Shown here one piece after another: positions 62,208 through 63,461 of a stretch of DNA of 64,000 bases. The stretch lies in the sequence record NC_048186.1; one strand, 5' to 3'. The position numbers were made by a program, and so were the translations under genes. How positions within the stretch are numbered: the first letter of the stretch is position 1; each line of letters begins with the position of its first letter. The DNA comes from Escherichia phage vB_EcoM_KWBSE43-6. The notes beneath the pieces were generated by a model that worked only from the letters and a program-made list of their open reading frames with translations, ran no database searches and was not told the DNA's origin.

Positions 62208-63461
62208 ATGGCTGATTATCTGAGCAAATATACAGGCCAGCAGATAGATAGTATTCTAGATGCGGTCGATGGAAAACTGAACAAAACTGATGTCGTGAAC
62301 GATATCACGGTAGATGACGACCTGTCCCCGGCGTCAGCACACCTTACGTTCGTCTTAAAATCTGCTATCGATACAATGAACGATGTTTTGACCAACAAAG
62401 TTGTTCGTACCGATGGGCAAGAACAAACGATAAACGGGAAAAAGACTTTTGCGTCTGTTCTGAATGCAAATGGTGGCATCGTAGTCCCGGCCCAACGCTC
62501 TATAACGATCACGGATGAACCTGCGGCCAACACGGATGCGGTGAACCTCAGCATGTTGAAAAAACATGGGCTGAGCACTGTGGATTCCGTTGGTTCTGGT
62601 TCTGGTCTGAAGATTTCGTTGCTTTCCAATGGTTACAACAAATTGGAAGTCGATCTCTCTAATCTTGTCGTGAGGACAGACACAGCGCTCCCTCAATCGC
62701 TGGCTGTGTATTCACCCACAGGTGGGTCACAAATATGGTCTATGACAAGCCTGTTCAACAGTTTTTTCGCTGACACTCGTTTCAACGACTACGTGAAGGT
62801 CGTGGAATATGATTCAGATATGCTGAACATTGAAACGCAATTCACTAGCGTCAACAACCGCATAAATCTGAAACTGGATACTGCGACATATACGACGAAA
62901 ATGACCAGTCTGGATTCTCAGATAGCGAATTTACAATCTGGGAAAGTGGATAATACGACGTATACGGCGAAAATGACAAGCCTTGACAGTCAAATCAGCG
63001 GCCTGTCTACGAATAAAGTTGACAAATCGACGTATGACACCAAAATGGCTAGTTTAGACGGTCAAATCAGTGATCTGACTACAAACAAAGTCGATGTGTC
63101 GACGTACACTACTGATATGAACGCCTTGAATTTGGCGCTGGCGGGTTCGGTGAAATTGGCTAAAACCAACACCACCAGTGTTTCTGTCCCGGCTTCTGGT
63201 AGTGCTGCGTTACCTGATTTCACTTTGGTGAATCTGTGTCAAATTTTGATTACAGCCAAATGGGGTACATTGGTTGATACGTTCTTGGTCACAATGACGT
63301 ATGACGGTACTCTTCAGGCAACGTCATTGACACAAAAAAGTACGGCGGGGACTTTGTCGTTCGCAGGTTCTGTTGTTTCAGGTAAACTACGCCTGACAAT
63401 GACCAATGCTAATACAACAACCGCAGCATCTGTCGATTATTCACTTCGTGCTTCTTTCTAA
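62208..63461 (+). CDS. Tail fibre-like protein with tandem ~21-aa repeats
   Basis: AGGAG RBS; repeats TYTTKMTSLDSQIANLQSGKVD / TYTAKMTSLDSQISGLSTNKVD / TYDTKMASLDGQISDLTTNKVD; followed by strong terminator. Confidence 0.5.
   Translation: MADYLSKYTGQQIDSILDAVDGKLNKTDVVNDITVDDDLSPASAHLTFVLKSAIDTMNDVLTNKVVRTDGQEQTINGKKTFASVLNANGGIVVPAQRSITITDEPAANTDAVNLSMLKKHGLSTVDSVGSGSGLKISLLSNGYNKLEVDLSNLVVRTDTALPQSLAVYSPTGGSQIWSMTSLFNSFFADTRFNDYVKVVEYDSDMLNIETQFTSVNNRINLKLDTATYTTKMTSLDSQIANLQSGKVDNTTYTAKMTSLDSQISGLSTNKVDKSTYDTKMASLDGQISDLTTNKVDVSTYTTDMNALNLALAGSVKLAKTNTTSVSVPASGSAALPDFTLVNLCQILITAKWGTLVDTFLVTMTYDGTLQATSLTQKSTAGTLSFAGSVVSGKLRLTMTNANTTTAASVDYSLRASF

Follow-up and report, generated by a model that had tools for sequence, protein, structure and literature searches.

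Trimeric coiled coils can be interrupted by short beta-layers, and described examples of such alpha/beta coiled coils include the stalk of Actinobacillus OMP100 (IENKADKAD), Thermosinus Tcar0761 (14 copies of MATKDDIAN) and the Streptococcus prophage tail fibre HylP1 (2C3F) (PMC4786415). The rules that govern these structures are simple: a layer of three residues follows heptad position c or g, the next helix starts at position e and the chains shift by 120 degrees (Hartmann et al. 2016, PMC4786415). One class of beta-layer has K in the first place, a small hydrophobic residue in the centre and D in the third (K-A-D). Solved structures with K-A-D layers include stalks of adhesins and the tail fibre of a prophage, and the register that follows the layer in 2C3F is 'beta-beta-beta efghijk abc...' (PMC4786415). 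In phage T4, the baseplate 'socket' protein gp9 (1QEX/1S2E; KP1 Gp9 in 9F4A) connects the baseplate with the long tail fibres; it attaches to gp7 through its N-terminus and to the long tail fibre through its C-terminal domain (PMC3004832). Here we describe a gene for a fibre-like protein with tandem in-frame repeats in a stretch of 64,000 nucleotides (nt) from Escherichia phage vB_EcoM_KWBSE43-6 (NC_048186.1), referred to hereafter as the window.

Phages of the Ackermannviridae have been much studied for therapy and biocontrol, with nearly all of the focus on their tailspikes. A 2024 review of the group lists several predicted baseplate proteins, and the 'prongs', as unassigned (PMC11721090), and models of the receptor-binding apparatus of the Menlow group show the protein considered here merely as '(1) putative tail protein' (PMC6872550). 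Our analysis supports its assignment as a fibre-like virion protein of the baseplate/tailspike cluster, in a family that is itself uncharacterised. Its 24-residue repeat most likely builds a three-stranded helical stalk.

A repeat of 72 nucleotides

The initial annotation had placed near-identical tandem units of 63 bp (21 residues) at positions 62880-63120. A tandem in-frame repeat was found there, with the first full unit starting exactly at 62880, but its real period was 72 nt (24 residues). A direct-repeat search gave start-to-start spacings of 72 and 72 nt. When the gene was compared with itself at offsets of 3-199, offset 72 was the clear maximum (66% identity in a 144-nt window from 62870), offset 144 gave the second-best self-match (from 62818) and offset 63 lay at background level (37%). 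In 200 codon-shuffled genes, the maximum over in-frame offsets reached 45.8% (mean 41.8%, sd 1.4). The repeat is far beyond chance and has a period of 72 nt, or 24 amino acids (aa). The motif proposed earlier was right; written out, it fills 22 positions which, with two linking residues, make 24. The accompanying count of about 3.5 units holds for the 241-nt span at a period of 72 and fails at 63.

The units are far from near-identical. Pairwise identity among the three full units was 56-71% at the nucleotide level and 58-67% at the protein level, and among the codons for identical residues (14-16 per unit pair) 7-11 differed. Tandem Repeats Finder, run with a minimum score of 30, reported no array at period 72 or 63 because the copies are too diverged. 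The duplication is old and has been kept by selection on the protein. The nucleotide divergence of the units and the lack of a Tandem Repeats Finder array also do not fit a hypermutable contingency locus of the slippage type. The full units are preceded by a degenerate unit of 27 residues (unit 0 in Table 1), which shares with them the Y-x-x-x-M core and a 4-3-4-3-4 hydrophobic spacing. AlphaFold2 was run on the monomer with a 41-sequence alignment (mean predicted local distance difference test score, pLDDT, 68) and predicted a helix for every unit; each 24-residue unit was modelled as a 20-residue helix and a 4-residue break exactly at [G/N]-K-V-D.

The unit was surveyed across 120 retrieved homologues with the core pattern Y-x-x-[KDL]-M-x-x-[LVI]-[DN]. 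All 120 carried two to five cores, and the 278 core-to-core spacings took only five values: 24 residues (n=185), 27 (n=68), 20 (n=18), 34 (n=6) and 41 (n=1). Every spacing (278/278) equals 3 or 6 modulo 7. The units all ended in [KR]-V-[DENS], with KVD in 159, KVE in 65, KVN in 32, KVS in 21 and RVE in 1. A hydrophobic profile was computed for each length class from its distinct units. Large hydrophobic residues occupied unit positions 4, 8, 11, 15 and 18 and the V of K-V-x in 100% of cases, as they did positions 22, 25 and 29 of the longer units; elsewhere their frequency was 0.15 or less, except at unit position 1 and at position 13 of the 27-residue units. This 4-3-4-3 stripe is a coiled-coil signature. 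Of the two shapes first suggested for the shaft, the coiled coil is favoured by the predicted helices and the strict 3-4 spacing, and the beta-helix, with all units predicted helical, is not supported. Comparison with relatives found the repeat conserved as a unit throughout the family.

A profile-free search with the stalk against 1.84 billion representative proteins gave only 35 matches at E <=0.001. Eight matches were inspected by sequence, and some of these were coiled-coil or leucine-rich-repeat noise, for example P0131. P0124, P0127, P0121 and P0125 are unrelated large proteins from public assemblies with long arrays resembling KVD-x-x-x-Y-N-x-K-[IM]-x-x-[LI]-[DE]; P0124 (1190 aa) has more than 10 copies of a 20-residue unit, QTEYNNKISTIETNISNKVD. 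The KVD-x-x-x-Y-N-x-K-[IM] unit seems to be a building block that recurs outside the Ackermannviridae, not a defined family.

The protein family and its variable unit number

In the list of open reading frames (ORFs), the fibre gene started at GTG 62127 and overlapped the preceding gene. Since that gene ends at 62203, since AGGAG (62195-62199) stands just 5' of the ATG at 62208 and since this start matches the annotated coding-sequence boundaries in relatives (Menlow, 0507-KN2-1 and others), we take the gene to run from 62208 to 63461 and to encode 417 residues. The gene was 90-97% identical at the nucleotide level to 45 records of Klebsiella phages of the genus Taipeivirus (Ackermannviridae), and its product matched phrog_3838 (function unknown) with E 3.5e-194, residues 1-417 aligning with profile positions 1-416 of 416. 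There were 143 protein homologues, with a query coverage of 100% for all among the matches listed. A tblastn search found homologues in 282 phage records across the Ackermannviridae, from phages with Salmonella, Escherichia, Shigella, Dickeya, Serratia, Erwinia and Enterobacter as hosts.

The orthologue in Kuttervirus, Sajous1 gp135, occupies the matching gene slot (52% identity, E 7e-146). It was detected with 74 spectra in virions purified on CsCl (PMC10892097 Table 6), so the protein is part of the virion. In Menlow the gene is annotated as 'putative tail protein', equivalent to Vi01_174, and some GenBank records name members of the family 'tail protein' or 'tail fiber protein'. These labels, the detection of gp135 in virions and the location in the baseplate/tailspike cluster bear out the description of the gene as tail fibre-like in the initial annotation. 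A Pfam scan of the protein found no family above threshold; what lay below it was coiled-coil noise (BBP1_C, NPV_P10, DUF2730 and others) and a weak match to BppL_N. No description of the protein was found in the literature on CBA120 orf214/gp214. The 'TC14-like tail fibers in Taipeivirus' of a 2026 preprint were not equated with it, because the definition of TC14, a gp37-like protein with an S74 peptidase domain (PMC12143355), does not fit.

Conservation differed along the protein (Table 1). The stalk was 51% identical to distant relatives, and the C-terminal domain was 99% identical within the genus and 69% identical to relatives infecting Salmonella, E. coli and Dickeya. The best structural match of the predicted C-terminal beta-sandwich (Foldseek) was the T4-type baseplate protein gp9 (1qex, E 1e-4), and the modelled fold appears similar to that of T4 gp9. 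Strong conservation of this distal domain speaks against a role as a receptor-binding head that differs between strains; the domain may instead make contact with a host structure that is conserved or with a different component of the virion.

At the other end of the protein, Pseudomonas phage Cygsa01 (PP179332.1, L012:4001-6022) was informative. It has a syntenic gene after its gp6-like and wedge genes, encoding a protein of 673 aa that has only aa 1-124 in common with the window protein and no KVD repeats. Retention of the N-terminal part only is the signature of an N-terminal virion anchor with exchangeable distal parts, and the N-terminal ~125 residues are the probable baseplate anchor; the N-terminus would then be the end that attaches. 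The Cygsa01 protein has a neck-type motif, 'RDAVNLQQM', near its C-terminus, and its C-terminal stretch (FLVTHDGT...) resembles the C-terminal domain of the window protein at a level that was not significant by HHalign (E 0.22). A neck-type motif, 'TDAVNLSMLKK', is also present in the window protein at aa 109-119 (nt 62532-62564). It is similar, below significance, to the DAVN neck motif given for the long neck of trimeric autotransporter adhesins (SadA, 2YO2; PMC4786415). In addition, aa 54-119 of the window protein align weakly with the N-terminal 'shoulder' of TP901-1 BppL (PF18338; 3D8M, 3DA0), as in VVRTDGQEQTINGKKTF...ANGGIVVP vs VVHKTGDETIAGKKTFTGNVEVNGSLTLP. This match fell below the Pfam cutoff (16.4 vs 25.8 bits, E 0.007; PDB 3d8m, E 0.15) and is a lead only. 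The BppL-like stretch at aa 65-82, within a region of resemblance at aa 65-119 (nt 62400-62564), lies outside the repeat region.

The number of units varied among relatives; the initial annotation had named such variation as a plausible route to differences in fibre length or host range. Taipeivirus proteins were 393, 417 and 441 aa long, with two, three and four units respectively. Among 44 full-length phage records, a count that includes RefSeq/GenBank duplicates, the gene spanned 1254 nt in 17 and 1326 nt in 27; the 393-aa forms were seen in assembled read sets only. With unit types named by their first residue, five architectures were observed: T-K and T-N (393 aa), T-N-K and T-K-K (417 aa) and T-N-K-K (441 aa). 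The K-type unit 3 of the window is duplicated in the 441-aa alleles and missing from the 393-aa T-N allele. The non-repeat flanks were exactly 345 aa in 34 of 34 proteins, so that the units are the sole length variable.

T-K and T-K-K fell in one sequence cluster and T-N and T-N-K-K in the cluster of the window protein, a spread that implies at least three independent events. Unit 4 of K5lambda5 was a mosaic, identical to the K type over nt 1-18 and to the N type over nt 19-65, and the T-N allele (L003) had an N-type unit carrying the tail of the last unit. Such mosaics point to unequal recombination in register, or to gene conversion, between units; slippage of the polymerase on identical repeats is improbable because the units have diverged. 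Copy-number variation changes the length of the stalk in fixed steps.

A stalk model and its alternatives

On balance, we think it probable that the repeats form a modular stalk in the centre of a conserved baseplate fibre of the virion, in which recombining units make up a beta-layer trimeric coiled coil behind an anchored N-terminus. Each 24-residue unit would be a short coiled-coil segment, with Y4, M8, L11, I15 and L18 in the core, followed by K-V-D. Three chains would form a parallel trimer, and K-V-D would serve as a KAD-type beta-layer, interrupting the helices so that the heptad register starts afresh. Read in this way, the positions would run beta-beta-beta / e f g h(Y4) i j k / a(M8) b c d(L11) e f g / a(I15) b c d(L18) e f g / beta-beta-beta, so that units of 24 residues would end after g and units of 20, 27, 34 and 41 residues after c. 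Because every unit would begin and end at a register reset, whole units could be gained or lost without disturbing the fold. Such gain and loss would result from homologous recombination, in register, between the diverged copies of 72 nt, giving the two-, three- and four-unit alleles. A helix rises 1.5 angstroms per residue, and on this basis each unit would add roughly 3-3.5 nm. The N-terminal ~125 residues would anchor the fibre to the baseplate wedge, and the stalk would set the distance of the gp9-like beta-sandwich. A functional effect of stalk length may follow.

The beta-layer rules permit unit lengths of 3 or 6 modulo 7 only, and all of the observed lengths comply. The unit ends also fit the beta-layer signature (beta1 K or aliphatic, beta2 small hydrophobic, beta3 D/T-like) when compared with KAD and MATKDD. 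Several points weigh against this model. The lengths 20, 27, 34 and 41 differ by whole heptads, leaving two independent length classes and a probability of agreement by chance of ~(2/7)^2, or ~0.08. In the hydrophobic profile, positions 4, 8 and 11 were partly set by the search pattern, although the remaining positions were not. Position e after the layer is K in the K-type units only, and K or R is reported to be usual there (PMC4786415). With a shift of one residue the motif also looks like the tandem module LxxKADKxxVYTKxE, and a second layer at Y-N-T is possible. The AlphaFold2 prediction is of a monomer with moderate confidence in the stalk (pLDDT 65-82), and the units are poor in charged residues, unusually so for soluble coiled coils. 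We infer the trimer and the beta-layers from sequence rules and by analogy, and a PDB sequence search found no solved relative, the best match being to coronavirus spike heptad regions (E 0.056). No phenotype was tied to unit number.

A serious rival, and a real possibility, is a segmented trimeric coiled coil like that of T4 fibritin, in which [G/N]-K-V-D-x-S-T would be loops, stammers or 3-10 turns and copy number would still set the length of the stalk. The helices and the hydrophobic stripe serve this explanation equally, 24 residues can be read as 21 + 3, that is, three heptads plus a stammer, and G or N ahead of K-V-D is typical for loops that end helices. It leaves unexplained, however, the strict conservation of K-V-[DENS] with its hydrophobic central V, and in units of 6 modulo 7 (20, 27, 34 and 41 residues) the periodicity breaks the helix into a beta-layer and is not absorbed as a stammer (PMC4786415). 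A shaft of another kind altogether, either a beta-helix or other beta structure or a compact antiparallel bundle of helical hairpins, is highly improbable. Triple beta-helices are common among the shafts of phage fibres, the units contain much S, T and N, and the AlphaFold2 prediction was made on a monomer only; yet that prediction gave a helix for every unit, the single hydrophobic stripe with its 3-4 spacing suits a coiled coil and not a beta-helix, and length changes in steps of 3, 4 and 7 residues.

The remaining alternatives concern what a variable stalk would do. We consider it unlikely that the locus is a host-range or contingency device in which the number or the sequence of units alters the host recognised. 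The length of a tail fibre can affect its reach to receptors beneath a capsule, and copy number is indeed polymorphic among phages from different K. pneumoniae strains. However, the distal C-terminal domain is nearly invariant in the genus and well conserved across phages of different host genera (see above), its predicted fold resembles a baseplate-type protein, and the divergence of the units in DNA leaves no slippage-prone tract. Moreover, alleles of 417 and 441 aa both adjoin a first tailspike of 960 aa (Madison and Menlow), and in the few cases seen the size of this tailspike did not follow copy number. Host specificity in the group has been assigned to the neighbouring variable tailspikes (PMC6872550; PMC8432352). 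A doubtful but less remote idea is that the protein is a peripheral baseplate fibre in the gp9 slot, possibly the 'prongs', and that the K-V-D units are an adjustable spacer tuning adsorption or triggering to the depth of the capsule or O-antigen. If so, gain and loss of units would set, with respect to the branched tailspike complex, the distance at which the gp9-like domain is held from the baseplate.

Neighbouring genes and known systems

The fibre gene lies between baseplate-wedge genes and the first tailspike gene in the window and in Menlow, 0507-KN2-1, phi1_175010, K5lambda5, Madison and Sajous1. Coordinates are collected in Table 1.

Table 1. The fibre gene, its repeat units and domains, and adjacent features (positions in the window)
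Feature	Position	Strand	Remarks
Fibre gene	62208..63461	+	complete, 417 aa; Vi01_174 / phrog_3838 family; orthologue of Menlow gp046 and Sajous1 gp135
N-terminal module, aa 1-125	62208..62582	+	63-66% identity to distant relatives; first 120 residues poorly defined in AlphaFold2, low confidence
Middle beta-rich region, aa 126-194	62583..62789	+	AlphaFold2 strands 131-178, pLDDT 65-73; least conserved, 46% to distant relatives
Unit 0, degenerate, 27 aa	62799..62879	+	VVEYDSDMLNIETQFTSVNNRINLKLD; ends K-L-D; AlphaFold2 helix 198-222
Unit 1, T type, 24 aa	62880..62951	+	TATYTTKMTSLDSQIANLQSGKVD; AlphaFold2 helix 225-244, then break at GKVD
Unit 2, N type, 24 aa	62952..63023	+	NTTYTAKMTSLDSQISGLSTNKVD; AlphaFold2 helix 249-268; missing from 393-aa T-K alleles
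Unit 3, K type, 24 aa	63024..63095	+	KSTYDTKMASLDGQISDLTTNKVD; AlphaFold2 helix 273-292
Terminal unit, 20 aa	63096..63155	+	VSTYTTDMNALNLALAGSVK; AlphaFold2 helix 297-312; last helix before C-terminal domain
C-terminal beta-sandwich, aa 317-417	63156..63458	+	most conserved; AlphaFold2 325-416 confident, pLDDT 83-89
T4 gp6-like baseplate wedge gene	59368..61368	+	PF21387, PF21379; phrog_219 E 2.6e-183; Menlow annotation
Baseplate wedge subunit, Vi01_175 homologue	61352..62203	+	PF23786 Baseplate_wedge E 3.4e-150
Hairpin between fibre gene and tailspike gene	63472..63508	+	RNA fold free energy (dG) -18.6 kcal/mol, z -5.35
First tailspike gene, 5' part (conserved anchor and gp10-like N-terminus)	63513..64000	+	phrog_9383 'tail protein' E 5.4e-126; Menlow tail spike annotation; window end cuts gene

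The best PHROG of the wedge gene immediately upstream was phrog_3465, labelled 'head closure Hc2', and the 'head closure' label is carried by this gene in phi1_175010, K5lambda5 and other deposited genomes and in the Sajous1 proteome table. The label is probably wrong, and the analysis thus also corrects an automatic annotation that is often met nearby. The gp6-like ORF as listed encodes 666 aa; relatives annotate 593 aa and the PHROG match begins at residue 74, and the true start is probably an internal ATG. The gp10-like domains of the tailspike were identified by HHpred (PMC6872550). A hairpin, AAAUACCCCUAG...CUAGGGGUAUUU, sits in the 51-nt gap between the stop codon of the fibre gene and the tailspike ATG. 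It was found by RNA folding (0 of 200 shuffles were equally stable) and was not listed by a scan for consensus terminators; it may be an intrinsic terminator or an RNA-stability element, forming a boundary between the conserved fibre gene and the variable genes for the tailspikes. Farther upstream of the baseplate genes, an ORF-poor stretch holds a cluster of seven tRNA genes on the - strand (54308-55995; Gln, Tyr x2, Asn, Ser x2, Met), in agreement with the tRNA cluster annotated in Menlow.

The finding is modest, in that coiled-coil stalks built of repeats and variable in segment number are well known in phage fibres. The stalk described here would be a stack of self-contained 24-residue modules. 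Its natural versions with two, three and four modules and otherwise identical flanks are a ready length series for work on fibre function, and the family offers a natural set of sequences for checking the beta-layer rules of coiled coils.

Of the known systems, T4 gp9 is like the window protein in being a trimer with a coiled-coil part (a putative feature of the window protein) and in the location of its gene: the fibre gene stands between wedge genes and a gp10-like gene, as gene 9 does in T4, where it directly precedes gene 10. The Ackermannviridae, however, are described as lacking gp9-gp11 and the small tail fibre gp12 (PMC11721090). Alignment of the 41-sequence family with T4 gp9 by HHalign was not significant (probability 1%, E 0.054 over 29 columns), and a Pfam scan at E <=1 found no gp9 family in the fibre protein. 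The window protein has 417 aa vs 288 aa in gp9 and departs from its three-domain plan of an N-terminal coiled coil with middle and C-terminal sandwiches; in the window protein the fibre-like N-terminus is followed by a beta region, then by the long repeated stalk and finally by one C-terminal beta-sandwich.

T4 fibritin (wac) is likewise an elongated trimeric fibre of short coiled-coil segments joined by short non-helical linkers, and in fibres of this type the number and length of segments vary between relatives. The segments of fibritin are irregular in length and sequence and the fibre ends in a foldon, whereas in the window protein the repeat is regular, the junction is always K-V-D and the end is a beta-sandwich; there was no sequence match between the two. 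The alpha/beta coiled coils share with the window protein a K-[small hydrophobic]-D triplet between coiled-coil segments, a layer placed after c or g with the helix restarting at e (2C3F register 'efghijk abcdefg'), tandem repetition and a presence in phage fibre proteins. They differ in repeat length, which is 20-41 residues, mostly 24, in the window family vs 9 or 6 in the alpha/beta coiled coils. The central residue of the putative layer is V vs A in KAD layers, position e is K in some units only, and the beta-layer itself is deduced here. Unlike the described alpha/beta coiled coils, the window family is polymorphic in unit number between close phages. The closest kinds are the trimeric coiled coils interrupted by beta-layers and the segmented coiled-coil fibres of phages.

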